Part shown: piece after piece, positions 3,105 through 35,623 of the stretch | How the letters are laid out: each line of letters starts with the position of its first letter | Position numbering within the stretch: position 1 is the stretch's first letter | DNA from: Candidatus Saccharimonadota bacterium | Lineage (GTDB): Bacteria > Patescibacteriota > Saccharimonadia > Saccharimonadales > Saccharimonadaceae | Reading direction: 5' to 3' | Assembly: GCA_009778675.1 (NCBI GenBank) | Contig: WRFU01000001.1 | Span: 797-64,796 of the forward strand | DNA length: 64,000 nt | Translations under genes and position numbers: made by a program | The notes under the pieces: generated by a model | Seen by the model: the letters and a program-made list of their open reading frames with translations, nothing else | Told to the model about the DNA's origin: nothing | Databases searched by the model: none

Positions 3105-3970
3105 TATCTTGCCTCCTGTGGGGGTGGCGGCGTACCTTCGCCCCTTTGCACGTACAAACTAGTCACTTTACTGAAATCAGCCAACGGCTCATGCACGGCC
3201 GTATCTGGATTGTAAAAATTGTAGAACAGAGTTGATAGTTCCTTGGTGTCTAACCGTACACTATGGACGCCCATCTGGAACAATCCGTTAACTACTAAAT
3301 CGACCCGATTATTTATCTCGGTCACCGCTTTGTCATAGGTAGCACGATCAATTTTGGTTACCGTTGCATCAGCACTACCACTACTGAACAGCTTTTTAAA
3401 GAAACCCTTACTTTGTGCCACAGCGTTTTCAATTGATTCCACGCTGGCGTACTGTACCACAATATAAAAACTCTTATCCATAATATTGGCCTCTTGGCTT
3501 AAAATATCAATAAATTGCATGTAGTCATCCATCAGCACATTCAGCAGCATGTTGTCTTGACCACGACGAATATCGGCCAAACGCTGCAAATAAGGCCCAA
3601 TATCAACTCGCTGCGAACGCACTAAAATCTGAGTGGTAAAATACAGCGAATTTAAGAAGTTTTGATAACTGTATTCCACACCATCTTTTTCGGTCTGACT
3701 CATCAAATCAAAATTGATCGATTCACAGGCCACCACTGCCCGAAAAGTGCCATCTTTCATGATCAACATACCATCGCGAATTTGCGAAACCTGCAAACTA
3801 TCCTGAGTACTTATAACCCCTGGTTTTTTGGCTGCTTTTACCGCCTTTTTGTCGTCGTCTTTGGTTGCCCCCGCCCCTTGCACGTTAGTGGCTGCAGGTG
3901 CAGTGGCAGCGGGCGCAGTTGCACCAACCGGGTTGGCGTTGGGAATTGCTGATTGTTCATTTGGATTCAT
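3104..3970 (-). CDS. T4SS-associated protein of unknown function
   Basis: 288 aa with an Ala/Thr/Pro low-complexity N-terminus followed by a globular domain. Its stop overlaps the virB4 start (TAATG). An SD (AAGGTGGG) lies upstream. Confidence 0.55.
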   Translation of the reverse strand: MNPNEQSAIPNANPVGATAPAATAPAATNVQGAGATKDDDKKAVKAAKKPGVISTQDSLQVSQIRDGMLIMKDGTFRAVVACESINFDLMSQTEKDGVEYSYQNFLNSLYFTTQILVRSQRVDIGPYLQRLADIRRGQDNMLLNVLMDDYMQFIDILSQEANIMDKSFYIVVQYASVESIENAVAQSKGFFKKLFSSGSADATVTKIDRATYDKAVTEINNRVDLVVNGLFQMGVHSVRLDTKELSTLFYNFYNPDTAVHEPLADFSKVTSLYVQRGEGTPPPPQEAR

Positions 3971-3985
3971 TAACTTTTGCCCACC

Positions 3986-4888
3986 TTACCTTAACGAAAC
4001 AAATACTTCGCCTTCATCCTTTTTAGTTGCTTTTTCGGCCTGTCGGGCGATTGTTTCAACTGACAGGTCATTGTTATTGGCCAAATTAACTATATCTGGC
4101 GAAATACCATTGTCCTGGTCTTCGTCTTTAATTATATCAGGCGCAGCGGCTACTTGACTAGGCGCAGCAGCTGGCGCGACTGGTTCGGGCACTGGTTTAT
4201 AAAATGATGTTATCTGTGGTGGTGCTTCAGCCGCTTCTGTAATAGCCGCCAAATCTGGCGTAGCGGCGGCTGGCTGAACACCAGTACTAGCGTCTTCTTG
4301 GGCAAAAGAATCCCGCATGCTTTTTATTACATCATCACGACGTTTTTGATCAGTGTTATCCATCAGCTGACTTAAATTGTTGGCCATTTGGCTATTTTCA
4401 TCTAGTACGTCGGTGGTACTCATGGCCTCTTGGTACAAATCATCACGCATCGGGCTACTGCCGCCAGTTTTGATCGCCCAACCCTGGCTGTCAGCCAAAT
4501 TCGATAAATAGGTCAACCGCTTATTGGCCTCGTTTTCACTTATATCTTTGGTGTATTGCACTTCTTCGACTTTTGGCGCGGTGATTTCTATTTGTGATTC
4601 AATGCCGTCGGCCTGCCAGATACGTTTTCGGGGTTTTAAAAAGAAAGACACAATTGCCAGTAGGTATGTTTCCATCGGCTGATCTTTTTTTAATGGCAAG
4701 GCCAATGCCCCAAACAGCACGATAACTGGTAAGGGTATAATTGCCAGCCCAATAAATAGCGTGCCCAAAGCCCAAGCTAATGCCACGCAGCCAGCTACAA
4801 TGACTAAATAAATAAACTGTCGAAAGCTAAACGGCCCTAAAAGTTTATCTTCGGCCTCCACGTTCTGCGGTACACTATACTGACCCAT
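3986..4888 (-). CDS. PrgI/VirB3-like T4SS membrane protein with long C-terminal extension
   Basis: 300 aa. The N-terminus (VPQNVEAEDKLLGPFSFRQFIYLVIVAG followed by two TM helices) matches the PrgI-family pattern. It sits two genes upstream of virB4, separated from it by the 288-aa ORF at 3104..3970. Confidence 0.55.
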   Translation of the reverse strand: MGQYSVPQNVEAEDKLLGPFSFRQFIYLVIVAGCVALAWALGTLFIGLAIIPLPVIVLFGALALPLKKDQPMETYLLAIVSFFLKPRKRIWQADGIESQIEITAPKVEEVQYTKDISENEANKRLTYLSNLADSQGWAIKTGGSSPMRDDLYQEAMSTTDVLDENSQMANNLSQLMDNTDQKRRDDVIKSMRDSFAQEDASTGVQPAAATPDLAAITEAAEAPPQITSFYKPVPEPVAPAAAPSQVAAAPDIIKDEDQDNGISPDIVNLANNNDLSVETIARQAEKATKKDEGEVFVSLR

Positions 4889-5023
4889 GATACCATCATA
4901 ACATTAGCATTAAATAAATAACAGATACCGCGTTGCCCAAAGGTCAACCCCTACGGTATACCAAAAGGTCGGTTTTTAATCAGAAGACAACAACAAAATA
5001 ACCCGACCCAACCGGTTACAGCC

Positions 5024-5052
5024 ATTGTAGCATACAACTTATGCTTTGTCAA
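5024..5052 (-). promoter_or_regulatory. consensus promoter cTATTGACA-17-TGcTACAAT upstream of the prgI-like/virB4 operon
   Basis: The minus strand reads cctATTGACAaagcataagttgtaTGcTACAAT. A second, proximal TGtTATGAT at 4895..4903 lies 6 nt from ATG 4888. Confidence 0.6.
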
Positions 5053-5173
5053 TAGGCAAAGTCATGTTATACTCGGACTGAAGTTAGCAATTTATAGCTA
5101 AGGCACCTTAGAGATTGGAGTAACACGCACGCCTTGTAAACGTCATGACCGTTTCGACCGAAAGGATTAGCTC

Positions 5174-5326
5174 ATGCCTATGTTCTTCTCTGCCTACACT
5201 GCGTCCAAAACCTACAGTATGCAATATCCGAACAGCATTTTGTGCTCATGTGGAGAAACAATTTGGGTGGCCAATGGCTCTAACCCTTATATCTGCCCCT
5301 ATTGCAGGCACACGCACAATCCTTAA
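5174..5326 (+). CDS. small zinc-ribbon protein (50 aa), below the ORF-track length cutoff
   Basis: My translation is MPMFFSAYTASKTYSMQYPNSILCSCGETIWVANGSNPYICPYCRHTHNP, with CxC...CxxC spacing. An SD (AAAGGA) lies 8 nt upstream and a TTGTCA-16-TGtTATACT promoter lies at 5046..5073. Strong hairpins follow at 5345..5370. I prefer it over the overlapping track ORF 5145..5372. Confidence 0.35.
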   Translation: MPMFFSAYTASKTYSMQYPNSILCSCGETIWVANGSNPYICPYCRHTHNP

Positions 5327-5444: not shown

Positions 5445-8000
5445 TTAGTCGCGGCCAAGATCAGAATCTGACACTTCGGTAATGCCCAATGTGTCCTTTA
5501 GCTTAATCAGCTCGTCGATAACTTCTTTACCGGTAGCGCTTCTTAAAATGTCATCTTTAGAAAAGTCTTTCAGAGTCCGCGTAATTTCTTTCTTGATCGT
5601 TGCTCGCACTGCTATGGCTTCGGCGTCAGTGTTTAACCCTAGCGCAGTTTTAATAGCACCAACGTTACCTAGCAACGTATTGTAAATATCCAGTGCTGCA
5701 GGCTTTTGTCCACTCAAAGCTTTAGCGTTGACTTTGTCTTGCAAAGCTTCAAGCATAATTTTCTCTGGGTTGATAGCCGACGAACCTTCGCCAATTTGCG
5801 CCAAATTGCCCGGCCCTAAGTACAAAGCATCATCTTTGATTTTCGCATCCATCAACGCTTGAGAAAGCAGTTGACGGTAGCTATGCAGTCGCTCACCAGG
5901 CGCCACCAAACGGACTAAATTATTAATAGTTGGAATGTCCTTGGCAATCACAGCTCGTTGAATGGCGATTTCGACCATCGGATCATCCGCCTTATACATT
6001 CCGTTGGCGTCGACTTGATTTATATCAATAGTCTTGACCACATTACCAGCCGCATCAGTATAGTTAAGCGCGGTGGGGTTATCATAATTAAACAGAGCTT
6101 TAAATTTAGGATCGTCCTTATTATGTAATGTCTTTAGGTATGCTTCGATTGCGGTGCGTTCATCCACGTGGGCTTTTTGGCTGACCGCAATGGCTGATGC
6201 CAAGCTGCCCATTTTGCCAGTTTCGCCACGCACGCCCGACATTTTGGTTAGTATAGCGTCAACTCGTACTGGATCTCTTTCTTGACCCTTAGCTAGCAGA
6301 TCTGCAAAATCTTGGTTGTAGGCGGTCTTGGCATTTTCTACCGCTGCAGCACTGACTAGATCAGCGTAACCGCCAGTTTGGGATAGCTCAAGTGCCGCTT
6401 TGGCCATTTCGTTCGTTTTAACTTGATTTGGACTGATATGTAACTCATCACCGAAGAACTGTTGACGGTTGGCCTCTGTGTCTTGTAGCTCACCGCGCTT
6501 AACTTTATTGGAATAACGATTACCTACAGTACGAGCGGCTTGCCACTGGTACTCACGCTCACTAGCTGTAACATTCTTGTCATATTCGGCTTTCTGGTTG
6601 GCAAAGTAAGCTCGCTGCGCGCGAACGGCTTGGCCGCGAGTCCTGCCGCGCGTGTTTTTAGCTAATTCATTATAGTTAGCCTCTTCCTTAGTTTCAGCAG
6701 CTTTTAATTCAGCTTCACGCGTGCGCTTGCCTGTAGCCAGGCTACCAGCTATACCGGCTGGTGTTACAAAGCGACGCCAGCCGGCTCTCTCTGACCCTTT
6801 AGCTGCCATTTGAGCTCGCTTGAGTCGCTGTTGTTCAGCGCTCCAATCCTTAACACTCTTCTCGGCACCGTTAAAGGCTTTGCGTACGCCGTTACCAATG
6901 CCGCCCAATAGTGAGCCACTCATTTTCATCAAAAATGGTGAAAAGATCAGTGGTACTACCTGCACCGCCAGGCCTAAAATAACAGCAATAGCACTAGTAG
7001 CAGATTGCAAAATCGCCCAGCCCGCCAACTGTGCCGCGCCAAATAGCAGCGAAAAAGCCGGAAAGATTATTAGCATTTGCATCAACATTTTGCGCCACTT
7101 CTCGAACCATTTTTCGGTGTTAGGCAATAGGTAGGCCACAAAAGCTAGGGGCGAGATTAACACCAGTAGCACTATTAGCCCCTGGCGGGCAGCCAGTATG
7201 ATAATTGCTGCTATCACTGCCAATGCGGCCGAAAGTATCACTGGTACAATCAACGCCAATAAGCCAGTCCAACCGCCGGCTGCTATAAAACCTGCTCCAG
7301 CTCCTACTGCGCCAGCACCGCCCGCCAATAAATCCGTAAAAGTAAAATTAACCGCTACGGCGCCACTTTTTGCTGCGGCTGCCTCGCGGATGCTTACAAA
7401 TAGCCCGCTTAAACTAGCCCCCAGAATATTAGATACATCCACGGCTATAGTGCAAATTAAATAAGACAGATTGACTAGTATCGCCGCTATGATTATCCGT
7501 GGCAGCACTTTTTTAATGCCATAATTATTTATACCTAGACCGGTGACCTGTGAGTAAACCACCACCAGCATAAAAATTATAAACACTACGTTGGCGACAT
7601 TACGCATATATGACCACACGGTGTAAATTGGGGATTCAGTGTCGGTGGACAGTGGTTTAGTGACTAAAAATTTCGACAATACGTTGTTATATAAGTTGTC
7701 GATACTTTTGGCTAGCCAGCTAGATACCGAACAGACAATCCAACTGATATTACCAGCTTCATGGGTACAAAAATCACCACTTTTAGTTTGGTCGGTGTTT
7801 TTGTCGGTCGTAGTCTTAGTTTGGTCAGTCGGCTGAGTTTGAGTGGTTTGATCAGTGCTGGCTGGTACGGCGTTAGCATTATTTGGCGGCATCCATAAAC
7901 AAGCCACTAAAACTAGCGGTAAAAATAGCGCTAACAGTAGTTTTTTTGCTGTTTTTATTGCCACACCCAAAAAACCAGCAGCCTCTTTTCCAAACTGCAT
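5445..8000 (-). CDS. VirB6/TrbL/TcpH-like polytopic T4SS membrane protein
   Basis: 851 aa with a signal/anchor, a Thr/Gln-rich linker, a block of about 6-8 TM helices (res ~140-370), then a ~480-aa hydrophilic tail. It is divergent from the pilin array. Confidence 0.55.
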   Translation of the reverse strand: MQFGKEAAGFLGVAIKTAKKLLLALFLPLVLVACLWMPPNNANAVPASTDQTTQTQPTDQTKTTTDKNTDQTKSGDFCTHEAGNISWIVCSVSSWLAKSIDNLYNNVLSKFLVTKPLSTDTESPIYTVWSYMRNVANVVFIIFMLVVVYSQVTGLGINNYGIKKVLPRIIIAAILVNLSYLICTIAVDVSNILGASLSGLFVSIREAAAAKSGAVAVNFTFTDLLAGGAGAVGAGAGFIAAGGWTGLLALIVPVILSAALAVIAAIIILAARQGLIVLLVLISPLAFVAYLLPNTEKWFEKWRKMLMQMLIIFPAFSLLFGAAQLAGWAILQSATSAIAVILGLAVQVVPLIFSPFLMKMSGSLLGGIGNGVRKAFNGAEKSVKDWSAEQQRLKRAQMAAKGSERAGWRRFVTPAGIAGSLATGKRTREAELKAAETKEEANYNELAKNTRGRTRGQAVRAQRAYFANQKAEYDKNVTASEREYQWQAARTVGNRYSNKVKRGELQDTEANRQQFFGDELHISPNQVKTNEMAKAALELSQTGGYADLVSAAAVENAKTAYNQDFADLLAKGQERDPVRVDAILTKMSGVRGETGKMGSLASAIAVSQKAHVDERTAIEAYLKTLHNKDDPKFKALFNYDNPTALNYTDAAGNVVKTIDINQVDANGMYKADDPMVEIAIQRAVIAKDIPTINNLVRLVAPGERLHSYRQLLSQALMDAKIKDDALYLGPGNLAQIGEGSSAINPEKIMLEALQDKVNAKALSGQKPAALDIYNTLLGNVGAIKTALGLNTDAEAIAVRATIKKEITRTLKDFSKDDILRSATGKEVIDELIKLKDTLGITEVSDSDLGRD

Positions 8001-8006
8001 GTGTTT

Positions 8007-8035
8007 ATTTTAGCACATCTCTGTAGAAAAATCAA
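8007..8035 (-). promoter_or_regulatory. promoter TTGATT-17-TGcTAAAAT, with the ATG of the VirB6-like gene 6 nt after the -10 (leaderless layout)
   Basis: The minus strand reads TTGATTtttctacagagatgTGcTAAAATaaacacATG. Confidence 0.6.
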
Positions 8036-8076
8036 GCTTAAGAGCCAAAAAAGTTGCCGTTTGGCCTACCCCGGCT

Positions 8077-8102
8077 CGTCATCCTGAGTTTGTTTCAGGA
8101 TC
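8077..8102 (+). repeat. copy of the GTCATCCTGA-N-TTTCAGGATC hairpin repeat family
   Basis: The sequence cgtcatcctgagtttgtttcaggatc matches the copies clustered at 34.4-35.0 kb. Confidence 0.8.
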
Positions 8103-8181
8103 TAAGGTCACTCGAACACGGCCTTAACTAGTGCGAAAAAGTTGCTTTTTTACCCCGCATGTTATATATTCAAACCAGATT

Positions 8182-8922
8182 ATGAAAAAGAAAAACCTAC
8201 CCGCCATAAGATACTTGTTATCCATAGCCATTCTGTTACTTATGGTTCTGGGCTTCACTGTATATAATAGTGATGTTTATGGCGCTTCAAATTTTGTCAT
8301 GAAGAATTATGGTTATGCTCAGCCTTGCAGTGATGGTTATTGGCTCAAATCGGCTTGCTTGAAGGCGAACAGTTTACCGTGTAGAGCTGAAGTCAATAAG
8401 GCTGACTATGAAAGTTGCGTTAAGAAGGGCTGTGCAGCATTAAGCACCGATGTTTATAAAAATGCCTGTTTCTACTTTGCGACTGGGCCGGCTACTGGTA
8501 CACCCAGGACTAATAATGATCCCAAGCTTAAAACCAGTGATTTCGCGGAGCCGACCGCTTTTAACGCTACCACTGGCAAATTTACCACGGGTGCTAGCCT
8601 TGGGGGCGGTAGCAGCAATAGTGGCTCTACTGGCGTTAAAGGTTGCGACGAAACATCGATTATCAGTGTGGACTGCGATGATAAAGGTAGTGGTATCTGG
8701 GGATTGCTTGGTATTATTCTAAATATTATGACAGTTGGTGTTGGTATATTAGCGGTGGCGGGTATTGCTTTTGCCGCTGTAATTTACATTACGGCCGAAG
8801 GCAGCCCCGATCGGCTTAAAAAGGCCAAAACCTGGATCTTCAATGTGGTACTGGGGCTAGTGTTATATGGTTTGCTATGGGCCATAATGCAATTCTTTGT
8901 ACCAGGCGGGGTGTTTAACTAA
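8182..8922 (+). CDS. VirB2/TrbC-like pilin paralogue with a Cys-rich N-terminal domain
   Basis: I placed the start at MKKKNLPAIRYLL (signal peptide). The secreted region has 8 Cys. The C-terminal two-helix hairpin with ...ITAEGSPDRLKKAKTWIFNVVLGLV... fits the family motif shared with the next six genes. Confidence 0.55.
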   Translation: MKKKNLPAIRYLLSIAILLLMVLGFTVYNSDVYGASNFVMKNYGYAQPCSDGYWLKSACLKANSLPCRAEVNKADYESCVKKGCAALSTDVYKNACFYFATGPATGTPRTNNDPKLKTSDFAEPTAFNATTGKFTTGASLGGGSSNSGSTGVKGCDETSIISVDCDDKGSGIWGLLGIILNIMTVGVGILAVAGIAFAAVIYITAEGSPDRLKKAKTWIFNVVLGLVLYGLLWAIMQFFVPGGVFN

Positions 8923-9386
8923 TGAAAAAGGCGCTGTTATCTGCCCTAATTATCGCGGCTGGTGTGTTTAGCCTGTCACCTATGCTGGCTTCTACTACTC
9001 TGGCTGCTTCTAGTACTCCCCCTGCCGAAACTAGTAATTACGTCTATGATTGCAACGCCAACAGCTTTTTAACTTTTCGGGCGTGGTATGCTGGCAAATT
9101 ATGTGACAAGAAAGGTAATGTCGGCATTGACCGCAAGTATGGCAGCGATGGGCTTACTAAGTTTATCTGGACAGTCGTCCTAAATGTCGTTGATAACATT
9201 TTCCAGTTAATCGGTTATGTATCGGTCGGCTTTTTGATGTATGGTGGCTATTTATGGATATTCTCGCAAGGTGTACCCGAAAGTGTGGCCAAAGGCAAAA
9301 AAACCATCACCAATGCTATTGTGGGGCTAGTAATTGCTCTGTTCGCCACGCTAATAGTTAATGTTATTTTAGGAGTATTCATGTAA
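8922..9386 (+). CDS. VirB2/TrbC-like pilin paralogue
   Basis: 154 aa with a signal peptide and a C-terminal hairpin (..YGGYLWIFSQGVPESVAKGKKTITNAIVGLVIALFATLIV). Its start overlaps the upstream stop (TAATG). Confidence 0.6.
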   Translation: MKKALLSALIIAAGVFSLSPMLASTTLAASSTPPAETSNYVYDCNANSFLTFRAWYAGKLCDKKGNVGIDRKYGSDGLTKFIWTVVLNVVDNIFQLIGYVSVGFLMYGGYLWIFSQGVPESVAKGKKTITNAIVGLVIALFATLIVNVILGVFM

Positions 9387-9721
9387 TGAACGATATCGGT
9401 TTAAAATTATGGATAATGTTAACAAATGTGGCGGCATCCACGGCTCCAGCCACTGATGCTAGTTCCGCCCTTAAACAGGCTAACGTACCACATACGAACG
9501 CCAATACCGCCCTAACCAACATCTTAAACCTAGCTTATTTTGCGGCTGGTATTGCCTGCACGGTTATGATCGTGGTCGCTGGCATCAATTGGATTATTAG
9601 TAGCGGTCAGCCAGACAAGGTCAAAAAAGCTCAGCAAACCCTTACCTACGCAATTATTGGCCTGATTATCGTCGTGTCGGCTTTCGCGATTACGCGATTT
9701 ATAGTGGGTGGAGCAAGCTAG
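9386..9721 (+). CDS. VirB2/TrbC-like pilin paralogue
   Basis: 111 aa with the motif ..VAGINWIISSGQPDKVKKAQQTLTYAIIGLIIVVSAFAI. TAATG coupling. Confidence 0.65.
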   Translation: MNDIGLKLWIMLTNVAASTAPATDASSALKQANVPHTNANTALTNILNLAYFAAGIACTVMIVVAGINWIISSGQPDKVKKAQQTLTYAIIGLIIVVSAFAITRFIVGGAS

Positions 9722-9722
9722 C

Positions 9723-10106
9723 ATGAAAAAAATATTGCTATTGTTATTACCAATCACAGTTATAGGGCTAGTGTGTTTAGCACCGGTTTCAACGTTGGCC
9801 GCCGATCCGTACAATGCCTGCCAGTATAACCCAGATGCTGCCGCTTGTGCCGATAAAGATACAAAAGGTGCGCAAACCAATTTAGCGACACGCGTCCAAA
9901 CTGTTCTAGACACAGTTTATCTGACTGCGGGCATTCTAGCGATTATCTTTATTGTTTACGCTGGCATTCGCTACGTTACCGCTACCGGCCAGGCCGATAA
10001 GGTAAAGCTGGCTCAAAAGCAGCTCACCTATGCTATAGTAGGGTTAATCGTGGCTGTTGTCGCTTTTGGCATCACGCGGTTTGTCGTTTATTGGGTAACT
10101 AGATAA
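9723..10106 (+). CDS. VirB2/TrbC-like pilin paralogue
   Basis: The start is moved to MKKILLLLLPITV (SD GGTGGAG). Motif: IYAGIRYVTATGQADKVKLAQKQLTYAIVGLIVAVVAFGI. Confidence 0.7.
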   Translation: MKKILLLLLPITVIGLVCLAPVSTLAADPYNACQYNPDAAACADKDTKGAQTNLATRVQTVLDTVYLTAGILAIIFIVYAGIRYVTATGQADKVKLAQKQLTYAIVGLIVAVVAFGITRFVVYWVTR

Positions 10107-10118
10107 GGGGGTTAAACC

Positions 10119-10511
10119 ATGAAAATAAAAAATTTAATCGTGGCAGCAGGTCTAGTGTTTACAGTTGGCGCGGTCGCTTTAGTGCCAACCACCACTACAT
10201 TAGCTGCTACTATAGCGGCCACCAATTCTAAAGAAGCAGCCAAAAACGGTGTGATCGATGTCGGTGGTGATAACAAAGATAATGGCAGTGCACTAACAGG
10301 TACGATAAGCGCCTTAGTTAATACCGCATTGTTCATCGTCGGTGTTATAAGTGTTGTAATGATTATTTACGCCGGTATCCGCTACCAAACAGCGGCTGGT
10401 GATCCAGCCAAAATTAAAACCGCTCAACATACTTTAACTTACGCTATTGTTGGCCTTATAATTGCGATTTTGGCTTATGCTATCGTTAACTTTGTCATAG
10501 GTCAATTATAA
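10119..10511 (+). CDS. VirB2/TrbC-like pilin paralogue
   Basis: 130 aa with a signal peptide. Motif: IIYAGIRYQTAAGDPAKIKTAQHTLTYAIVGLIIAILAYAIVNFV. Confidence 0.75.
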   Translation: MKIKNLIVAAGLVFTVGAVALVPTTTTLAATIAATNSKEAAKNGVIDVGGDNKDNGSALTGTISALVNTALFIVGVISVVMIIYAGIRYQTAAGDPAKIKTAQHTLTYAIVGLIIAILAYAIVNFVIGQL

Positions 10512-10909
10512 TGAGCCGATTCGTGCAATTGATTAAACTGGCCTTAGTGGTTATTTGTAGTGTATTTGTGTTTTCTACTCTACTGACGCCGGCGTTATCT
10601 TATGCTGCCAAACCGGCGGATCAAATCAATAATGGCTTAAATCAAGCCGAAACAGGCGATGCCACGAAAAGCAGCACGAACCGTTCCTCTCTGCAAAACA
10701 CTGTTGGCAACCTTATCAATGCCGCCATTTTTATTGCTGGTATTTTGGCGGTTATCTTTATTGTTTACGCTGGTATCAGCTACGTGGTGTCGGCCGGCGA
10801 CCCAGCCAAGATCAAAACAGCTCAGCACATATTAACCTATTCTATTGTGGGGTTATTAATTTGTATCTTGGCCTTCGCTATTGTTAATTTTGTCTTAAGT
10901 AGGCTATAA
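10511..10909 (+). CDS. VirB2/TrbC-like pilin paralogue
   Basis: 132 aa. Motif: IVYAGISYVVSAGDPAKIKTAQHILTYSIVGLLICILAFAIVNFV. Confidence 0.75.
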   Translation: MSRFVQLIKLALVVICSVFVFSTLLTPALSYAAKPADQINNGLNQAETGDATKSSTNRSSLQNTVGNLINAAIFIAGILAVIFIVYAGISYVVSAGDPAKIKTAQHILTYSIVGLLICILAFAIVNFVLSRL

Positions 10910-11027
10910 TAAAGGCGTCTGAGTGAAAAGCTTAAGCCTGTTTAAGTTTTCCCAAAGGATGTGATTTATTATATCTTCTGATATAATTTACGATAAGTCT
11001 TAAGCATTAACACGAAAGGAATAATAA

Positions 11028-11414
11028 ATGAAAAAACTAACTAAGATCCTAGTAGCCGGTGCGGCAGCGCTTGCTTTGGCCTTTAGCTTTGTACCAGTAA
11101 CGGGTGTTCTGGCTGATCCAGTTGGTGGCCTTGGTGATGGAGTTAATCAAGCTAGATCTAATGACCAACCAAGTAATCTCTTTGGTGATGGCGGTATTAT
11201 TACTGGCGTTATTAATGCTGTGCTATTTATCGTCGGTATTTTAAGTGTTGTTATGATTATCTACGGTGGTATCCGTTACGCTACTAGTGCCGGTGAAGCC
11301 AAGCGTGTCACTGATGCTAAAAACACTATTATGTATGCTATTGTCGGCTTAATCGTCTCGATTTTGGCCTACGCCATTGTCAACTTCGTAATTGGTAACA
11401 TCATCCAGTCGTAG
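11028..11414 (+). CDS. VirB2/TrbC-like pilin paralogue
   Basis: 128 aa. Motif: IIYGGIRYATSAGEAKRVTDAKNTIMYAIVGLIVSILAYAIVNFV. It has its own promoter and SD, and is closest to the distal copy at 17234..17647. Confidence 0.75.
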   Translation: MKKLTKILVAGAAALALAFSFVPVTGVLADPVGGLGDGVNQARSNDQPSNLFGDGGIITGVINAVLFIVGILSVVMIIYGGIRYATSAGEAKRVTDAKNTIMYAIVGLIVSILAYAIVNFVIGNIIQS

Positions 11415-11612
11415 CCGCAACATCATCGGCTTATCCCAACCCGTCCTAGACTGTTTTAAATACCCGCCTAACTGGGCGGGTATTTAAAAAACCAACTCAT
11501 CCTCCAAACAAGTCCGACTTGTTTGGAGCAAAAATGTGGTGTGATAAAACTGCGCCCTAGGCGGGGGTGCAGTTTTAAAATCATAAGTGACTCGTAACAC
11601 TTATTGCTTAGC

Positions 11613-12089
11613 TTATAGAACTTTTATCTTCTTGGCTTTTTCTTCTTTAACTTTGTCGAACGAAATAGTCAAAACGCCATCTTTTAGTACGGCCTCGACA
11701 CCGTCTTCTTTGATTGGCACTGGCAGCGCAATCGTGCGACTAAATTCGCCCCAGTAACATTCCTGGACGTGCCAGTTGGCTACTTCGGTGCTATCACCAG
11801 AGTTCAGCGTGCCGCTGATTGTTAAAATATTATCAGAAATACTAACGTCTAGGTCTTTTTTATCGACGCCAGCCGTACGGGCTTTTACCACCAACTTATC
11901 AGCAGTTTCATAAACATCTACTGCTAGCTGGCCTGGGAATTCCTCGCTTGTTTCATCCCATTCTTCTTCTTGTACCGGGGCTTCTTCCGAAGTTTCTTCT
12001 AGTAGTTGTTCGTCATTCAAAAACGCAGCCGCTAGTTCGTCCTCGATTAGAAGATCATTATCTTGTTTACGAGCCATAATATCCTCCAC
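11613..12089 (-). CDS. Hsp20/alpha-crystallin small heat-shock protein
   Basis: 158 aa with an alpha-crystallin core (LAVDVYETADKLVVKARTAGVDKKDLDVSISDNILTISG...GVLTISFDK). Confidence 0.85.
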   Translation of the reverse strand: MEDIMARKQDNDLLIEDELAAAFLNDEQLLEETSEEAPVQEEEWDETSEEFPGQLAVDVYETADKLVVKARTAGVDKKDLDVSISDNILTISGTLNSGDSTEVANWHVQECYWGEFSRTIALPVPIKEDGVEAVLKDGVLTISFDKVKEEKAKKIKVL

Positions 12090-12147
12090 TTAGGCTTTGA
12101 ATAGCTTAATTATACAGGCAAATTGATTTATAATCAATGAAATAGAG

Positions 12148-12828
12148 GTGAACGTTGTAAATAACACTATGCTAGATGAACTATTAAATTTTATAGCACC
12201 GCACTACTGTTGTTCTTGCGGGCAAAAAGGGCAGATTTTATGCCATCGTTGTAAAAGCGACATCAATTTTGATGGTCTAAACTATTGTCTACTATGCGGA
12301 TCGCCGATCATTCATAGTTGCACGCGTTGCCGGCCGGCTTACGCTAAATCTTGGGTGGTTGGCAAACGTGAAGGTGCGCTTAAGGCGCTCATAAACCAGT
12401 ACAAATTTAGCCGTGCGCGTAGCGCCTACAGACCTTTAGCGCAAATGTTAGCCGATACACTGCCCCAACTGCCGCCAGATACCGTAATTGTACCTATCCC
12501 CACTATCGCCCCACACGTGCGGGCTCGCGGTTACGATCAAGTTAAGTTAATGGCCAAACAGCTAGCCAAACTAAAGAGTTGTGCCTATGCCCCACTTTTA
12601 GCCCGTAAAACTAACACCGTACAGCATGGTGCAACTCGCACCAAACGCCAGCAACAAGCTAAACAAGCTTTTTGTTGTCGAAAACAATTAAATCCATCTA
12701 CCCCATATCTTATTGTCGATGACATCAGCACCACTGGTGCGACTGTCAACGTGGCCGCTAAAGTGTTAAAAGCTGCCGGTGCGACTAAAGTCTGGGTGGC
12801 AGTGGTAGCCTGGCAGCCGCACAAATAG
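12148..12828 (+). CDS. comF: ComF-family phosphoribosyltransferase-domain protein
   Basis: The N-terminus has double CxxC zinc fingers (CCSCG..CHRC, CLLCG..CTRC). The C-terminal PRT motif is LIVDDISTTGAT. The start codon is uncertain (GTG 12148 or ATG 12169). Confidence 0.8.
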   Translation: MNVVNNTMLDELLNFIAPHYCCSCGQKGQILCHRCKSDINFDGLNYCLLCGSPIIHSCTRCRPAYAKSWVVGKREGALKALINQYKFSRARSAYRPLAQMLADTLPQLPPDTVIVPIPTIAPHVRARGYDQVKLMAKQLAKLKSCAYAPLLARKTNTVQHGATRTKRQQQAKQAFCCRKQLNPSTPYLIVDDISTTGATVNVAAKVLKAAGATKVWVAVVAWQPHK

Positions 12829-12895
12829 TCATCATCCCCCGGGAGCTTGTAGTTTTCGCAAGACCTCTCATCTTAATTTTTGGTACAATAACTTT

Positions 12896-14341
12896 ATGTC
12901 TAAACTAAAATGGCTACAGCCGCCGCGTTGGTTAGTTTTTGTCGTGATTTTTATTTTGTTCACGTTAGTAGCTTGGCGTCATTTAGATCCGGATTTTGGC
13001 TGGCATCTGGTATCTGGCCAGTATTTTCTGGCTCATGGTGTGCCAAAAACAGATATCTTTAGCTATACGGCCACGCACTTTTCGTGGGTCAATCACGAAT
13101 GGCTAAGCGATATCATCCTATCGATAATCTACAGTTTAGGTGGTTACGGTTTAGCTGCCGTAGTTTATGGTGTTATGTGGACACTATCTTTTTACCTAAT
13201 TGGCCGCCGTGCTAACGGTTGGGTATTGCTAGCCGCCATTGCAGCCGTGCTACCTTGTGCTGGCGTGCGCGGTGTTACATGGTCGGTGTTAGGTTTGGCA
13301 GCTCTACTAACCTTATTAAACATCTGGCGTCAAAAGCTATCTAGCCGGCGGCGTCTACTACTGGGTATTGCCATAGTAGCGTTAATCGGTCTTTGGGCGA
13401 ATTTGCATGGCGGTTTTATTGTAGGTATCGCAGTGGTTGTATTTTATGCATTTTTACAAAAATCTTGGCGCCTAGGCCTAGTTGCTATTGGCGGTGCCTT
13501 ATTGGCGTTGATTAATCCATACGGGATTGGTATTTACGTTGAAGTAACACGCACACTACTAGATACTAGCCTAAAAAGCAACATCGCAGAATGGGAACCA
13601 GCCTGGCACTTGATGAATTGGAGCGCCGCCGCTCTGTTGGTGCTATATGGTGTAGCCTTTTTATGGACAGTCTCCAATACCAAACATCGCTCATGGCGTA
13701 CCTTTTTAACAGCCGAAAACATCTTTTTGCTGGCGGCTTTTAGCGCCTACCGTAACTGGCCATTTTTTGCATTAGCAGCGATACCAATGGTAGATCACAA
13801 CGCAAAACAGATTGCCAAAGAACTAACAAACAAGCCGCCCCACCGTATCAACTGGATTTTTGCAGCAGCGATTGTTGGGATGATCGCATTCAGCGGCTGG
13901 CGAGTGTATCAGCAAGACTTTAGCGGCTCGTGGCAGCGCGAAGCTAATTCGCCGCAGGCCGCCGTTAGTTATCTGCAGGCTAATCCATGCCCGGGCAATT
14001 TATTTAACGATTATGACATCGGTGGCTACCTTATCTGGAAACTGCCGCAGGCTAAAGTGTTTATCGATGGCCGCATGCCCAGCTGGGAAATCGCACCTGG
14101 TGATCGTAACTACGGCCAGTTACCAAAATATTTTGATGTTTATAAAAAGATTTACGACAATAAAGATAAACAGTGGCGCACAGCCGAGTTTAAAGCCTAT
14201 AACATTAGGTGCGCGCTAATTGGTAAAAACTCAGATTTAGCTAAAGCCCTAAAGCACGAAAAATGGCACCAAGTCAAAAGTGCTGGCGGCTGGGTATTGC
14301 TGATAGAAAATTCAAATTCGCAATCAGGTGATACACAATGA
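12896..14341 (+). CDS. polytopic membrane protein, possible GT-C-type glycosyltransferase
   Basis: 481 aa with about 10 TM helices and a soluble C-terminal domain. It sits in a cluster with a second GT-C-like gene and a GT2 gene. The ATG is 6 nt after TGgTACAAT (12881..12889). Confidence 0.45.
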   Translation: MSKLKWLQPPRWLVFVVIFILFTLVAWRHLDPDFGWHLVSGQYFLAHGVPKTDIFSYTATHFSWVNHEWLSDIILSIIYSLGGYGLAAVVYGVMWTLSFYLIGRRANGWVLLAAIAAVLPCAGVRGVTWSVLGLAALLTLLNIWRQKLSSRRRLLLGIAIVALIGLWANLHGGFIVGIAVVVFYAFLQKSWRLGLVAIGGALLALINPYGIGIYVEVTRTLLDTSLKSNIAEWEPAWHLMNWSAAALLVLYGVAFLWTVSNTKHRSWRTFLTAENIFLLAAFSAYRNWPFFALAAIPMVDHNAKQIAKELTNKPPHRINWIFAAAIVGMIAFSGWRVYQQDFSGSWQREANSPQAAVSYLQANPCPGNLFNDYDIGGYLIWKLPQAKVFIDGRMPSWEIAPGDRNYGQLPKYFDVYKKIYDNKDKQWRTAEFKAYNIRCALIGKNSDLAKALKHEKWHQVKSAGGWVLLIENSNSQSGDTQ

Positions 14342-15588
14342 AAGTTCTCCAGAAGATCGCCAAGATCCCGTTGCCCGTTTTAATTTTAATGACGATTATA
14401 ATTGTCATGATCGTGGCAATATTTATTGCTAGTTCACCTACTGGCGAACAACAGTTTTCTGATTTAGCCCTTAGTTTCCTACGGGGACATTTATATTTTT
14501 GGGACAATCAACTGCGTGGTGATGCCACGTTATTTAACAGCCATTATTATTGGTCGCTGGGAATCTTTCCGGCACTATTGATTACGCCATTTATGGCAAT
14601 CTTTCAGTTATTCGGCGGATATTTTTATCAAGAATATTTATTTGTACCACTGGTAGTATTGGCATTATATTTAATCTATAGGCTTGCTAGGCGGTTTAAT
14701 TATAGCGGCCAAGATGCTGGCTACTTAGTGATAGTTGGCTTGGCCGGAACATCTTTACTGGGAATTGCACCAATCGCGATGAGTTGGTATTTAGCCTCGC
14801 TAATTGGTTTTGTATTGCTGCTCCTTGCATTAGTCGAATTTTTCGGGAAACGCCGCTATTGGGTATTAGGAGTTCTAACAGGGTTGCTAGTTTTGACGCG
14901 CCCACCTGCAGCTGTAGCATTGGCAGTATTTTTGATTCTGGACATGTTTTTGGCACAAAAGATAGAGTTTTGTAGGATCTTCAGTTGGCAGAACTGGTGT
15001 AAACTGGCTAAAGTCGCGTTACCTATTATACTAGCGCTAGTAATTTTCTGTACTTATAACTACGCACGTTTTAGCAACCCCTTGGAAACAGGCTATGCAC
15101 AACAAATCTATCCGAATGTCCAAATCAATAAGTACGATATTGCCGCACGTCAGTATGGTATTTTCAACATCCGCCACATTCCTGGGCAACTTTATAATAT
15201 GTTTTTTAGCATGCCAACCCCAGTATATTATCATGGCAAGGCGCCAGTGCTAACGCCACCATTTATTCGTAGCAATCGATATGGCATGAGCCTGTTTTTG
15301 ATTTCACCCTGGTTATTATGGCTCTTTACGGTTCGCCGGAAACATTGGTCAAAAGTAGCAGTTTTCCTATTAATAGCTGCCAGTGCAGGGATATTATTAA
15401 ATGCGTGTTTCTTCGGTCTGGGTTATGGGCTGTTCGGACTACGATACTCACTCGATTTCTTACCATTCTTGATGTGTGCGCTGTTTATGCTTTATCACAG
15501 ACAAAACAAACAGCTTACACGTGGCATGAAATCTTTAATTGTGATATCAGCGTTGTTTAATCTCTATTTATTACTGACTGCGATTTAA
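14338..15588 (+). CDS. ArnT/PMT-like (GT-C fold) membrane glycosyltransferase candidate
   Basis: 416 aa and polytopic. A 4-nt overlap couples it to the upstream gene. The general layout matches family 39/83-like transferases. Assignment is by architecture only. Confidence 0.45.
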   Translation: MKVLQKIAKIPLPVLILMTIIIVMIVAIFIASSPTGEQQFSDLALSFLRGHLYFWDNQLRGDATLFNSHYYWSLGIFPALLITPFMAIFQLFGGYFYQEYLFVPLVVLALYLIYRLARRFNYSGQDAGYLVIVGLAGTSLLGIAPIAMSWYLASLIGFVLLLLALVEFFGKRRYWVLGVLTGLLVLTRPPAAVALAVFLILDMFLAQKIEFCRIFSWQNWCKLAKVALPIILALVIFCTYNYARFSNPLETGYAQQIYPNVQINKYDIAARQYGIFNIRHIPGQLYNMFFSMPTPVYYHGKAPVLTPPFIRSNRYGMSLFLISPWLLWLFTVRRKHWSKVAVFLLIAASAGILLNACFFGLGYGLFGLRYSLDFLPFLMCALFMLYHRQNKQLTRGMKSLIVISALFNLYLLLTAI

Positions 15589-15615
15589 TAGTACAGATTT
15601 TGGTAAAATAGTTAA

Positions 15616-16308
15616 ATGAATACACCACAGTGCAGCCTAGTTTTGCCATGTCGTAATGAAGCGACCCATTTAACAGCAGTACTCGCAGCTGCTCCTAAGA
15701 TAGTTACTGAAATTATTATTGTTGATAACAATTCTACTGATAATACTGCCCAAGTTTGTGCGAAGTTGGCCAAGCAGGACTCACGCATTCGATACCTTCT
15801 TGATCCGCGGCAGAAAGATGGTGTTGGTTATGGCTTCGCTATCATGACGGGTCTGGTTGCGGCTAGGGGCGACTTTGTTATAGTGGCCGATGGTGATGGC
15901 AGCTACCCGTTTGGTGAGATCTTATCGGCTGTAGAATTCATGGAAAAGCAAAGGTTAGATTTTGTATCATGTTCGCGATATCCAGTCGGCTCGGGTGCTG
16001 AACCTATACCAATCAAACTGTGGGCGGGGGTAAGAATTCTGAACACCTGGGTAAAGTTGCTCTATGGGTTGAAATTCGATGATATTTTATCTGGCATGAT
16101 GATAATACGGCGTGCTAGTTTAAACAAGCTGCGTCTTGATGCGGGTGATTGGAATATGAGTCCGCAGTTAAAACTGGAAGCTTTTCGGCACTTACGTGCC
16201 AGTGAATTCCATATTTCCCAGCAACAACGCTTTGGCAAAACTAAACAGCACTACGTCAAAACAGGTATAAGTCATATGTTTTGGATTCTAGCTAATCGAT
16301 TCCAGTAA
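15616..16308 (+). CDS. family 2 glycosyltransferase (polyprenyl-phosphate sugar synthase-like)
   Basis: 230 aa with VLPCRNEA, IIIVDNNSTDNT and VADGDGSYP motifs. The ATG is 6 nt after TGgTAAAAT. Confidence 0.8.
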   Translation: MNTPQCSLVLPCRNEATHLTAVLAAAPKIVTEIIIVDNNSTDNTAQVCAKLAKQDSRIRYLLDPRQKDGVGYGFAIMTGLVAARGDFVIVADGDGSYPFGEILSAVEFMEKQRLDFVSCSRYPVGSGAEPIPIKLWAGVRILNTWVKLLYGLKFDDILSGMMIIRRASLNKLRLDAGDWNMSPQLKLEAFRHLRASEFHISQQQRFGKTKQHYVKTGISHMFWILANRFQ

Positions 16309-16370
16309 GTTCTAGGCATCATAAAAGCTCGGGTTGCGGCCTAACCTAAATACAAGGTATAATCCCCTAT

Positions 16371-16458
16371 GGAAGGTTGACCGAGTGGTTTAAGGTACCG
16401 GTCTTGAAAACCGGCGTGGGGCAACCCACCGCGAGTTCGAATCTCGCACCTTCCGCCA
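16371..16458 (+). tRNA. tRNA-Ser (anticodon UGA), CCA encoded
   Basis: Cloverleaf folded by hand: acceptor ggaaggt/accttcc, anticodon loop cuUGAaa, long variable arm, T-loop gttcgaatc. Confidence 0.9.
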
Positions 16459-16537
16459 TTTAATTATTGACGTAGTTAAAGCACTACGTTAACATTAAAG
16501 CATAATATAATAGTTAAAGCAGGATAGGACAAGCTTT

Positions 16538-16831
16538 ATGTATCAAATGACAGTTTCATCCCAAGGCCAAGTCACTCTACCCGCTAAATTGCGTCAAGCG
16601 TTGGGGGTAAAGCCTGGTGATTCTATCACAATCACGACGCAAAGTGGCGAAGTGGTATTAGAACGTTCAAAAACTCTAAGGGAGAAATTGGCCAACCTAC
16701 GTCGTGAGTTACCTAATGCTGCGCAGCTGGATATAGAAAACCACCGTGGCCAAACCGTAAATGAATTGCGTAATAATTACATGCAAAGCCATAGTGGCAA
16801 CCAATTAACCAGGGGTGAATATGGTTTATAG
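16538..16831 (+). CDS. AbrB/MazE/SpoVT-fold antitoxin (VapB-like)
   Basis: 97 aa. MTVSSQGQVTLPAKLRQALGVKPGDSITI is the swapped-hairpin motif. It overlaps the downstream PIN gene. Confidence 0.7.
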   Translation: MYQMTVSSQGQVTLPAKLRQALGVKPGDSITITTQSGEVVLERSKTLREKLANLRRELPNAAQLDIENHRGQTVNELRNNYMQSHSGNQLTRGEYGL

Positions 16832-17222
16832 AGAATCACTCGATGCCAACGTATTACTCCGTCTAGTTCTAAATGATGTGCCGATCCAAACAGAAAAAGT
16901 TATTAAATTGCTCGAACGCAAAAATGCCAGTTATGACGTGTCAGATTTAGCGATACACGAGTTGGCTTATGTGTTAGAGATGGCACTTGGTTTAAGCCGC
17001 GATTTTGTCGCCCAAACCATCGATATTATCATATCTACCCATAATATTAACTGTAACCGGACTTTGTTTGGCGAAGTACTGCCGGCTTATTTAAAGTATC
17101 CAAAACTATCATTTAACGATTGTTGCTTGGCAGGCTATGCCAAACTCAACCAAACTGAGCCACTGTGGACTTTTGATCACACACTAGCTGTACAATCAGG
17201 TATTGCCAAAGAAATAAAGTAG
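16815..17222 (+). CDS. PIN-domain toxin (VapC-like)
   Basis: 135 aa. The N-terminal LDANVLLRLV carries the first acidic residue. Size and operon position are typical of VapC. Confidence 0.65.
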   Translation: MNMVYRESLDANVLLRLVLNDVPIQTEKVIKLLERKNASYDVSDLAIHELAYVLEMALGLSRDFVAQTIDIIISTHNINCNRTLFGEVLPAYLKYPKLSFNDCCLAGYAKLNQTEPLWTFDHTLAVQSGIAKEIK

Positions 17223-17233
17223 GGTCGATCGTT

Positions 17234-17647
17234 TTAGACGTTTAACTGGGCGCCGGTACTAGAACTAGCCAACGAAGTAATAATAAAGTTAATAATAGCG
17301 TAAGACAATATGGCGATAATTAGGCCAATGATAGCATACATAATGGTGTTTTTAGCATCGGTAACGCGTTTGCTGTCACCACCCGAAATAATGTAGCGAA
17401 AACCACCATAAATCAGCATAATAACACTAATAATACCGACGCCAAACAGTAGCGTATTGGTGACTTGTGTAAAAATACCACTCGCGCCGAACAGATCTGT
17501 TGGTTGGTCGGTGCCTTTAGCTTCAAGCGCACCACCAGCCACGCCACCGGTTGTTGGTGCGGCAAAAATCCTACCAACCCAAATGTTTAACGTAGCATAA
17601 GCTGCCACTGTTGTGGCCAAAATAGTTTTTGCAATTTTTTTGATCAT
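17234..17647 (-). CDS. VirB2/TrbC-like pilin paralogue (distal eighth copy)
   Basis: 137 aa. Motif: LIYGGFRYIISGGDSKRVTDAKNTIMYAIIGLIIAILSYAIINFI. It is most similar to 11028..11414. Confidence 0.75.
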   Translation of the reverse strand: MIKKIAKTILATTVAAYATLNIWVGRIFAAPTTGGVAGGALEAKGTDQPTDLFGASGIFTQVTNTLLFGVGIISVIMLIYGGFRYIISGGDSKRVTDAKNTIMYAIIGLIIAILSYAIINFIITSLASSSTGAQLNV

Positions 17648-17824
17648 AGCTAGCCCTTTAAATACTTAGCTTAAATATAGCATGCTATAACTAGCCTGTC
17701 TAGATAAAGGCATGTTATAATCTAATACGACACGGAGTGCCGGAGCGTTTTAGCCAAAACGCGACAAAATCAGATGATTGACGGTCACCGTCCCCTGAGG
17801 GACAATTGGGTGTGTCAACTGTAA

Positions 17825-34362: not shown

Positions 34363-34430
34363 AGTTACTAGTATAGCAGATCAGTACAGTTGTCGTATTG
34401 AGCCTACAAGTTACCTAGAATTCTACAAAG

Positions 34431-34523
34431 CGTCATCCTGAACTTGTTTCAGCCGTCATTTTGGGCTCGTGAGCCGTCATCCTGAACTTGTTTCAGCCGT
34501 CATCCTGAACTTGTTTCAGGATC
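34431..34523 (+). repeat. three direct copies (plus one fragment) of the CGTCATCCTGAACTTGTTTCAG(GATC) hairpin repeat
   Basis: Copies lie at 34431..34452, 34475..34496 and 34498..34523, with a fragment at 34454..34460. The last copy supplies the GIY-YIG C-terminus (DPETSSG-stop). Confidence 0.9.
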
Positions 34524-34796
34524 TAGCAAATCTTTCCACTCGGGGTTAATACTCTCAATCAAATTTATTTTCCAGTCCCTGTGCCAATTCTTAAGCTGTT
34601 TTTCGCGCTCGATAGCACTCGTCATATCTGCACCTTCTTCATAATATACTAATTTATAGGTTTTATATTTACTGGCAAAATTTGATTTTATACCTAATCG
34701 GTGCTCGAGTACTCGCTTCGATAAGTCACTAGTAGTGCCAATATACAATGTTCCATTTTTTCGGTTCGACAAGATATAGGTGTAGGCTGTTTTCAT
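34500..34796 (-). CDS. GIY-YIG (URI) domain nuclease, UPF0213-like
   Basis: 98 aa with YTYILSNRKNGTLYIGTTSDLSKRVLEH and a typical size. It is embedded in hairpin repeats. Confidence 0.8.
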   Translation of the reverse strand: MKTAYTYILSNRKNGTLYIGTTSDLSKRVLEHRLGIKSNFASKYKTYKLVYYEEGADMTSAIEREKQLKNWHRDWKINLIESINPEWKDLLDPETSSG

Positions 34797-34818
34797 ATTG
34801 ATTATTTTATATCAAATA

Positions 34819-34843
34819 GATCCCGAAACAAGTTCGGGATGAC
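34819..34843 (-). repeat. inverted-orientation variant of the hairpin repeat
   Basis: gatcccgaaacaagttcgggatgac. Confidence 0.8.
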
Positions 34844-34927
34844 ACTATATGAATTCAGACGACTATTTCACGTGAAATAAGCACTACTTAATAATGCCTT
34901 CACGTGAAAGTTGTGTAAAACCACCTT

Positions 34928-34952
34928 GTCATGCTGAATTTATTTCAGCATC
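34928..34952 (+). repeat. divergent copy of the hairpin repeat
   Basis: gtcatgctgaatttatttcagcatc. A further degenerate copy lies near 34976..34999. Confidence 0.7.
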
Positions 34953-35048
34953 TAACTACCCTTTTTTTGCTATCTATTCTGAAACAAGTCCAGATCGACA
35001 GATAGAGCAGCCTCACTTTTTGTTTTACATAAGCATTATAACACAAAG

Positions 35049-35075
35049 TAAGCGCCCCTGGGTAGGGGGCGCTTA
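35049..35075. terminator. bidirectional terminator-like hairpin
   Basis: taagcgcccc-loop-ggggcgctta, a 10-bp stem. Confidence 0.55.
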
Positions 35076-35099
35076 TAAGTAAATGGATTTGGCGTAGAT

Positions 35100-35564: not shown

Positions 35565-35623
35565 AAAATGCCTCCAAATACTTGAAATGTACAAAACAGG
35601 CCTATTTTATACTAAAAGCCGTT

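Follow-up and report, generated by a model that had tools for sequence, protein, structure and literature searches.

Eight VirB2-like pilin genes of six positional types at a type IV secretion locus of a Saccharibacteria genome

Eight genes of one pilin family

The DNA analyzed here is a stretch of 64,000 nucleotides (hereafter the window, in whose coordinates features are given) from contig WRFU01000001.1 of assembly GCA_009778675.1 (positions 797 to 64,796, forward strand), which belongs to a Candidatus Saccharimonadota bacterium. The genome measures 825 kb, is spread over 39 contigs with an estimated completeness of 95.7%, and appears to come from an uncultured organism, its proteins being found on a single contig of the protein collection searched. 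Between positions 8182 and 17647 the window encodes eight paralogous open reading frames (ORFs), seven in tandem on the + strand and one distal on the - strand, as described in an earlier note made from the sequence. Homology, synteny, positional orthology and natural gene fusions, all observed in this study, are the basis on which we consider it likely that the eight genes encode the VirB2-like pilins of a chromosomal, monoderm-type type IV secretion system (T4SS) conserved across Saccharibacteria, and that they make up a fixed set of six types in a fixed order and not a series of interchangeable variants.

The first gene (8182-8922, +) encodes a type 1 pilin of 246 amino acids (aa), in which a signal peptide is followed by a cysteine-rich head of about 130 residues with eight Cys, a C-x9-C pair, the hairpin common to all copies and a C-terminal PGGVF. 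A start at GTG 8131 was considered for this gene and dropped, ATG 8182 giving a proper signal peptide and the recorded 246-aa product. The second gene, of type 2 (8922-9386, +; 154 aa), has a signal peptide, a C...WYxGxxC head containing a Cys pair, and the hairpin; the Cys-rich or extended N-terminal domains noted earlier for the first two genes are hence real features of both. Type 3 (9386-9721, +; 111 aa) carries the hairpin without a canonical signal peptide, and type 4 (9723-10106, +; 127 aa) has a signal peptide, a Cys-pair head and the hairpin. Two copies of type 5 come next, copy a (10119-10511, +; 130 aa) and its lineage-specific duplicate, copy b (10511-10909, +; 132 aa). The tandem series is closed by type 6 (11028-11414, +; 128 aa), the candidate major subunit, which has its own spacer and a good Shine-Dalgarno site, and a distal second copy of type 6 (137 aa) occupies positions 17234-17647 on the - strand, at a distance of 6 kb.

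All eight genes match PF18895 (T4SS_pilin), the family of VirB2-like pilins of Patescibacteria (gathering score 26.6 bits), over their C-terminal ~65-70 aa, and these are exactly the matches to this family in the 825-kb genome. Seven of the matches score between 37.5 and 49.6 bits (46.6 for type 2, 49.6 for type 3, 39 for type 4, 42.2 and 42.5 for copies a and b of type 5, 37.5 for the tandem and 38.2 for the distal type 6); for the first gene the protein scan gave 23.1 bits and the six-frame scan of the genome 26.6 bits. The TrbC/VirB2 family PF04956 was matched by gene 9386-9721 only, at 27.6 bits against a gathering score of 27.9 (E 3.3e-6, profile positions 8-96 of 98), so that none of the eight reaches that cut-off, the other seven being unlisted at E up to 0.01. 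The window genes are therefore treated as distant relatives of PF04956 and not as members. The search of pilin and TrbC families proposed in the earlier note thus upholds its assignment of the genes as VirB2/TrbC-like pilins.

Five copies, from among the pilins at 9386-11414 and 17234-17647, also match NF045849, the Mbov_0395 pilin-like conjugal transfer protein of Mycoplasma integrative and conjugative elements, with 32-40 bits; one of them, copy a of type 5, reaches the cut-off of 40 (40.4 bits, the maximum). In a control search PF18895 also gave matches in Haloferax volcanii. The matches to NF045849 and in H. volcanii hint that the family may belong to the monoderm and archaeal lineage of mating pair formation systems known as MPF-FATA, and may not have been borrowed from the T4SSs of diderms.

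The proteins have the layout expected of such pilins, namely a leader peptide followed by two hydrophobic helices that are joined by a short charged loop. Signal peptides were judged by eye, and a classical Sec leader was recognized in seven of the eight; the claim that each copy has one fails for the third gene (9386-9721), as it does for the third-position genes of relatives. Identity between the hairpins of the window copies ranges from 28% to 66%, with 62% between the genes at 10119-10511 and 10511-10909 and 66% between those at 11028-11414 and 17234-17647. In an AlphaFold2 (AF2) model of type 6 (11028-11414) the signal helix is followed by a loosely ordered head and then by the hairpin, whose two helices (residues 57-85 and 91-126) are predicted with a local confidence score (pLDDT) above 90.

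TAATG stop/start overlaps between several genes had been pointed out, and three were found, at the junctions of genes 1 and 2, 2 and 3, and 5 and 6. The other gaps measure 1 nt (genes 3 and 4), 12 nt (genes 4 and 5) and 118 nt (genes 6 and 7). The 118-nt spacer holds an extended -10 box, TGATATAAT (10979-10987, +), which by its match to the consensus is a putative separate promoter of type 6, and a promoter-like site recognized in the same way, TAGACA-17-TATATT with TG, lies upstream of the distal copy (17674-17702, -). In the divergent intergenic region ahead of the first pilin gene (8001-8181) a TGTTATATAT box ends only ~12 nt before ATG 8182, and the array mRNA may therefore be leaderless or nearly so.

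Positional types among relatives

PF18895 genes occur in 5-14 copies in 39 of the 41 genomes compared, which share the family or the order of this one, with no internal stops among the relatives' matches listed. Tandem arrays were present in all 20 of the relatives' loci that were fetched, six of which also have an opposite-strand copy a few kb away. In a maximum likelihood tree of 134 pilins, with branch supports from the Shimodaira-Hasegawa-like approximate likelihood ratio test (SH-aLRT), the first-position genes form one clade (support 100), as do the second-position genes (~89-90); the third-position genes are split between two clades (86 and 97), and the last-position and distal genes group together in one (92). 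Mapped on this tree, the position label requires 20 changes against 77.7 +/- 3.1 when shuffled, and the genome label 105 against 111.3 +/- 2.4. On this phylogenetic evidence the copies group by array position and not by genome, as positional orthologues across genera that belong to an old fixed set. The number of middle copies differs between lineages, and lineage-specific duplication is seen only among these.

Hidden Markov models (HMMs) of the positional classes, built without the window sequences, typed the window genes in order as 1, 2, 3, 4, twice an ambiguous 4/5, 6 and 6, types 4 and 5 being told apart by small margins only. The first gene scored 170.8 bits with class a1 and the second, which falls in the a2 clade, 149.9 bits with class a2; the best classes of the third and fourth were P3 (88.5 bits) and P4 (91.4 bits), respectively. 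Copy a of type 5 is tied between P4 and P5 (99.8/98.6 bits), and copy b is its sister in the tree. Class P6 was assigned to the gene at 11028-11414 (147.5 bits) and to the distal gene (153.8 bits), which groups with the distal copies of relatives. Uncut arrays of 3-6 genes were recovered in 29 of 80 further loci found through VirB4, where the class order is the same wherever the classes are present, and in 21 of the 29 a type 6 copy lies on the opposite strand.

Each type can also be told by features of the sequence ahead of or behind the hairpin. The invariants of type 1 are the C-x9-C Cys just before the hairpin, one Trp, and PGGVF at the very C-terminus; its head is nearly absent in some homologues and exceeds 100 residues in others. 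The homologues of the window copy cover only its C-terminal ~40%, with identity of at most 69%, and no homologue of its head was found among 5.8 billion proteins. Type 2 has a conserved C...WYxGL...C head. Type 3 of relatives measures ~100 aa and is devoid of a classical leader in most genomes, and type 4 is characterized by a Cys-pair head. Window genes 5 and 6 are regarded as a duplicated type 5 because of their 62% hairpin identity and because they share the Cys-free head P-A-[SD]-[EQ]-I-x-x-G-[VL]-N seen in type 5 of relatives (P-A-D-Q-I-N-N-G-L-N in copy b). The closest homologues of type 6 are only ~60% identical to it, and at the distances seen for types 1 and 6 saturation of synonymous sites is to be expected, which puts dN/dS of the variable heads out of reach. 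The heads of type 6 keep nearly invariant G38, L51, G53 and N63 and hence are not hypervariable. In types 3-6 the exposed part amounts to only ~30-45 residues.

Two-hairpin ORFs account for 25 of the 318 pilin ORFs of relatives. They occur in several families and always consist of a type 2 module followed by a type 3-like one; in addition, one homologue is a fusion of types 1 and 2. Both termini of a VirB2-type hairpin lie outside the cell, so that the type 2-3 fusions are topologically consistent, and we read them as the probable explanation of how the leaderless type 3 is exported. The fusions are also read as Rosetta-stone evidence that neighbouring types would stand side by side in one assembly.

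Type 1 is found joined to other domains. In five type 1 pilins of other Saccharibacteria, known from other metagenomes (P0125, P0134, P0151, P0154 and P0148) PGGVF is followed by a Gly/Ser linker and a C-terminal domain, which belongs to the tyrosine-phosphatase family (PF13350) in three cases and to the endonuclease/exonuclease/phosphatase family (PF03372) in one, the remaining domain of 230 aa being unassigned. This suggests that type 1 may be a carrier of host-facing cargo.

Pilin hairpins also occur as part of larger membrane proteins. One relative (L029, G012:C2:14000-22000, ORFs 3398-3775 and 3782-5254) has a second, separate T4SS cluster that encodes, in this order, a pilin, a 490-aa protein, a PrgI-like protein, a 219-aa protein and VirB4, and there the 490-aa protein, polytopic and VirB6-like, begins with a PF18895 hairpin. 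Long frames of 442-497 aa with a pilin hairpin were likewise seen in the relatives G005, G014 and G025.

At the DNA level, the best direct repeats between array copies have 63-72% identity over 81-104 nt. No near-identical tracts, flanking inverted repeats, recombination cassettes, invertible promoters or other invertible elements were found among the copies. The array offers neither the recombination substrates nor the clustering by genome that are expected of antigenic cassettes.

The secretion locus and its closest counterparts

The array diverges from four genes on the minus strand, which include the VirB4 and PrgI genes (PF19044 and PF12666), both less than 7 kb from the pilin genes. The VirB4-like ATPase (1245-3104, -; 619 aa), recognized by PF19044 (103 bits) and PF12846, is the only VirB4 of the genome. 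It is 80-85% identical to the VirB4 of the best 80 of 557 loci encoding a relative, and these 80 are mostly from Candidatus Saccharibacteria or Saccharimonadales; nearly all of the closest loci come from metagenome-assembled genomes. Next to it lie a conserved protein of 288 aa (3104-3970, -), which by synteny takes the place of SEML1_0009 of Southlakia epibionticum, and a PrgI/VirB3-like protein of 300 aa (3986-4888, -; PF12666, 47.3 bits). The fourth gene (5445-8000, -) encodes a polytopic membrane protein of 851 aa in the place of SEML1_0011/0013. A Pfam scan of this protein gave no match, and it is by position and topology that it is labelled a putative VirB6-like platform; the single VirB4/VirB6 set that the earlier note placed beside the pilins is supported with this qualification.

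On its 3' side the array is followed by genes for Hsp20, a ComF-like protein, two membrane proteins and a family 2 glycosyltransferase, by a tRNA-Ser, a two-gene cassette and the distal pilin, and by a second tRNA-Ser. The cassette (16538-17222, +), which separates the glycosyltransferase genes from the distal pilin, is formed by two small overlapping ORFs of 97 and 135 aa that look, by eye, like an AbrB/SpoVT-type antitoxin and a PIN-type toxin. Outside the window, the TraG-D_C domain known from T4SS coupling proteins is matched above its Pfam cut-off of 22 bits by two long frames of the same genome, one of 919 aa at G000:C17:15592-16026 (+; 27.8 bits) and one of 899 aa at G000:C7:8446-8634 (-; 25.3 bits); these may be candidate VirD4-like ATPases encoded apart from the T4SS locus. 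Cumulative GC skew of the window reaches its minimum (-0.48) at ~34000-36000 and rises steadily thereafter; the replication origin may lie at this minimum, some 25 kb away from the pilins. In Patescibacteria, T4SS genes close to dnaA have been noted.

The closest counterpart is the locus of Southlakia epibionticum ML1, whose array is made up of six tandem genes (SEML1_0014-0019) and the distal SEML1_0024 (Wang et al. 2023, PMC10633639). In both loci VirB4, a gene for ~290 aa, PrgI (903 bp in both) and a VirB6-like protein are encoded on one strand, the tandem PF18895 pilins diverge from them, and Hsp20, ComF and an opposite-strand distal pilin near a tRNA-Ser follow; the six types stand in the same order. 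The window differs in having seven tandem genes instead of six, type 5 being duplicated, a single VirB6-like gene of 851 aa as against two larger genes in Southlakia, and a type 1 head that is much larger and an orphan; it is, moreover, known from the genome alone. In the transposon insertion sequencing (Tn-seq) of Southlakia, SEML1_0014-0019 were all scored as essential and the distal SEML1_0024 as non-essential (PMC10633639).

More widely, 441 VirB2 arrays of 2-11 genes each, with a mean identity of 25%, have been described in 383 assemblies of Patescibacteria (Quinonero-Coronel et al. 2025, PMC12102498), Saccharimonadia and Microgenomatia being the groups richest in them. These arrays, like the 'Sec-secreted array' of Nanosynbacter lyticus TM7x, consist of tandem PF18895/PF04956 genes near virB4, a pattern into which the window fits. 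The authors of the survey suggested that the arrays have a role in adapting to different hosts (PMC12102498); as opposed to such versatility, the fixed positional orthologues and neighbour-type fusions found here point to co-assembly.

A precedent from monoderms is PrgF of pCF10, a VirB2-like protein that is essential for conjugation; its model is a pilus seated on a pentamer of VirB6 (ter Beek et al. 2025, preprint), and residues of its hairpin loop have been shown to become open to labelling from outside. It follows that monoderm T4SSs do have pilins. PrgF(B2) and its counterparts in conjugative T4SSs of Gram-positives share with the window proteins the small two-helix membrane architecture, the charged loop and the monoderm MPF-FATA-type context. 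However, the PrgF system is conjugative, has a single pilin gene and includes a relaxase and a coupling protein; the window system is chromosomal, its eight pilin genes fall into six types, and its locus contains neither a relaxase nor a coupling gene. VirB2, TrbC and TraA of Gram-negatives (PF04956) also have a leader, two hydrophobic helices and a basic loop and are encoded with VirB3, VirB4 and VirB6, and one window copy aligns to nearly the whole TrbC profile; yet its match is below the gathering score of PF04956, and an outer membrane, VirB5, VirB7, VirB9 and VirB10 are absent. Classical Gram-negative T4SSs have one major pilin. The multiplicity of the genes, earlier implied to be unusual, is so in comparison with these systems but is the published norm in Saccharibacteria. 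By analogy, the set recalls the minor pilins of type IV pili and of type II secretion pseudopili, where several conserved, non-interchangeable small subunits with a fixed order accompany one major subunit; fold and assembly machine are unrelated and no homology is claimed.

Proposed assembly of the pilins and what it means

Of the three proposals made in the earlier note, namely a heteropolymeric filament, a switchable or antigenic set, and a generic export and anchoring module, the first fits the positional orthologues and natural fusions best. Because of the clustering by position, the conserved order and the type 2-3 fusions, a fixed heteromeric assembly is favoured over switching or antigenic variation. 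Seven of the proteins would be exported by Sec and their leaders cleaved, and type 3 would probably be inserted without a leader. Each protein would then reside in the membrane as a two-helix hairpin with its Lys-rich loop in the cytoplasm, from where a VirB4-powered machine would extract the hairpins onto the putative VirB6-like platform. There the subunits would come together in a single heteromeric pilus or conduit directed at the host cell, with type 6 as its repeating unit and types 1-5 as specialized subunits of low copy number. Co-assembly and stoichiometry are what we infer from the array, and its presumed role in epibiotic growth is extrapolated from the Southlakia Tn-seq.

Several observations weigh against this reading. 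Polar effects of transposon insertions in an operon may inflate the per-gene essentiality scored in Southlakia. Those filaments that were isolated from another Saccharibacterium, Mycosynbacter amalyticus, proved to be built of immunoglobulin-like Pam pilins and not of VirB2-like ones, and a filament of PF18895 proteins has not been reported in the literature for any member of the family. In structure searches, the type 6 model gave no Foldseek match in the Protein Data Bank (PDB) at E <= 0.001, and none to the solved VirB2/TraA pilins; the profile of the eight genes gave only chance matches among PDB sequences (E >1), to sensory rhodopsin transducers. A helical hairpin resembles many unrelated proteins, and fold comparison accordingly neither confirms nor denies kinship with VirB2. 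For a natural fusion of types 2 and 3 from a relative, AF2 predicted four helices with a pLDDT of 68.6 and a predicted template modelling score (pTM) of 0.48, a confidence at which the model says nothing firm on the packing of the two hairpins. Finally, the middle genes of the window (a3-a6) group together in the tree (SH-aLRT 97), so that their assignment to types leans on class-HMM margins of 0-15 bits and on head motifs.

Two other explanations appear improbable, and about equally so. According to the first, the proteins are not structural but are Sec-secreted effectors or T4SS substrates, for example small hairpins that insert into the membrane of the host, in line with the earlier description of the TM7x genes as a 'Sec-secreted array' of putative effectors. 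The classical signal peptides of seven of the eight proteins agree with such a role, as do the TM7x studies, in which the array genes were treated as putative effectors whose expression depends on the stage, and the fact that filaments of VirB2 type have not been seen in the group. Nevertheless, the matches to the pilin families PF18895, TrbC and NF045849 span the whole hairpin, two hydrophobic helices with a short Lys-rich loop correspond to the membrane topology of pilins, the fixed six-type set and the fusions between neighbours suggest parts of one structure, and PrgF provides a precedent.

According to the second, the hairpin serves mainly as a membrane anchor or export module that displays diverse surface domains, and no filament is formed. 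The type 1 homologues, with their variable heads and, in some, C-terminal enzyme domains on Gly/Ser linkers, are what such a module would look like, and so is the VirB6-like protein that starts with a pilin hairpin in the second T4SS cluster of a relative. The cargo fusions, however, are confined to type 1, types 3-6 expose so few residues that they have little to display, and a role in the machine is indicated by the pilin genes being strictly linked to those of VirB4, PrgI and the putative VirB6 and essential along with them. The proposal of a generic export and anchoring module therefore survives for type 1 and not for the other types.

Least probable of all is that the copies take turns as the major pilin, or replace one another, for antigenic or host-range variation, an idea put forward for the VirB2 paralogues of Anaplasma and Bartonella: the low identity between copies (28-66% in the hairpin, less in the heads), the orphan type 1 head, the differing number of middle copies and the suggestion made for Patescibacteria (PMC12102498) speak for it, but the copies cluster by array position, share no near-identical tracts or invertible elements (DNA identity being at most 72%) and keep their head motifs within types across genera, all six tandem genes scored essential in Southlakia (PMC10633639), and several array genes are co-expressed in TM7x, so that the switchable set envisaged earlier finds no support.

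Beyond co-assembly itself, a more detailed arrangement can be put forward, tentatively and with less confidence than the fixed set of pilins. The proteins could form an ordered structure of VirB2-family subunits in which type 6 would make the shaft, types 2 and 3, which many lineages have fused, would be obligate neighbours, and type 1 would face outward and confront the host with a fast-evolving head or an enzyme domain, replacing the missing VirB5 tip. If true, no known VirB2 pilus would share this logic of assembly.

Multi-pilin arrays have already been published and are normal for Saccharibacteria; the window is an ordinary member and no new kind of system. Its peculiarities are the extra type 5 copy and the unusually large orphan head of type 1. 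What the comparison adds is a narrowing of hypotheses: the fixed set of six types in conserved order, the natural fusions of types 2 and 3, the missing leader of type 3, the cargo borne by type 1 and the dispensability of the spare type 6 copy jointly speak for a single heteromeric part of the machine and not for a variation system, and the type scheme guides the choice of which genes to delete, tag or co-model. Few functions have been shown to be essential to Saccharibacteria in their epibiotic life on host bacteria, and the T4SS with its pilin array is one of them.

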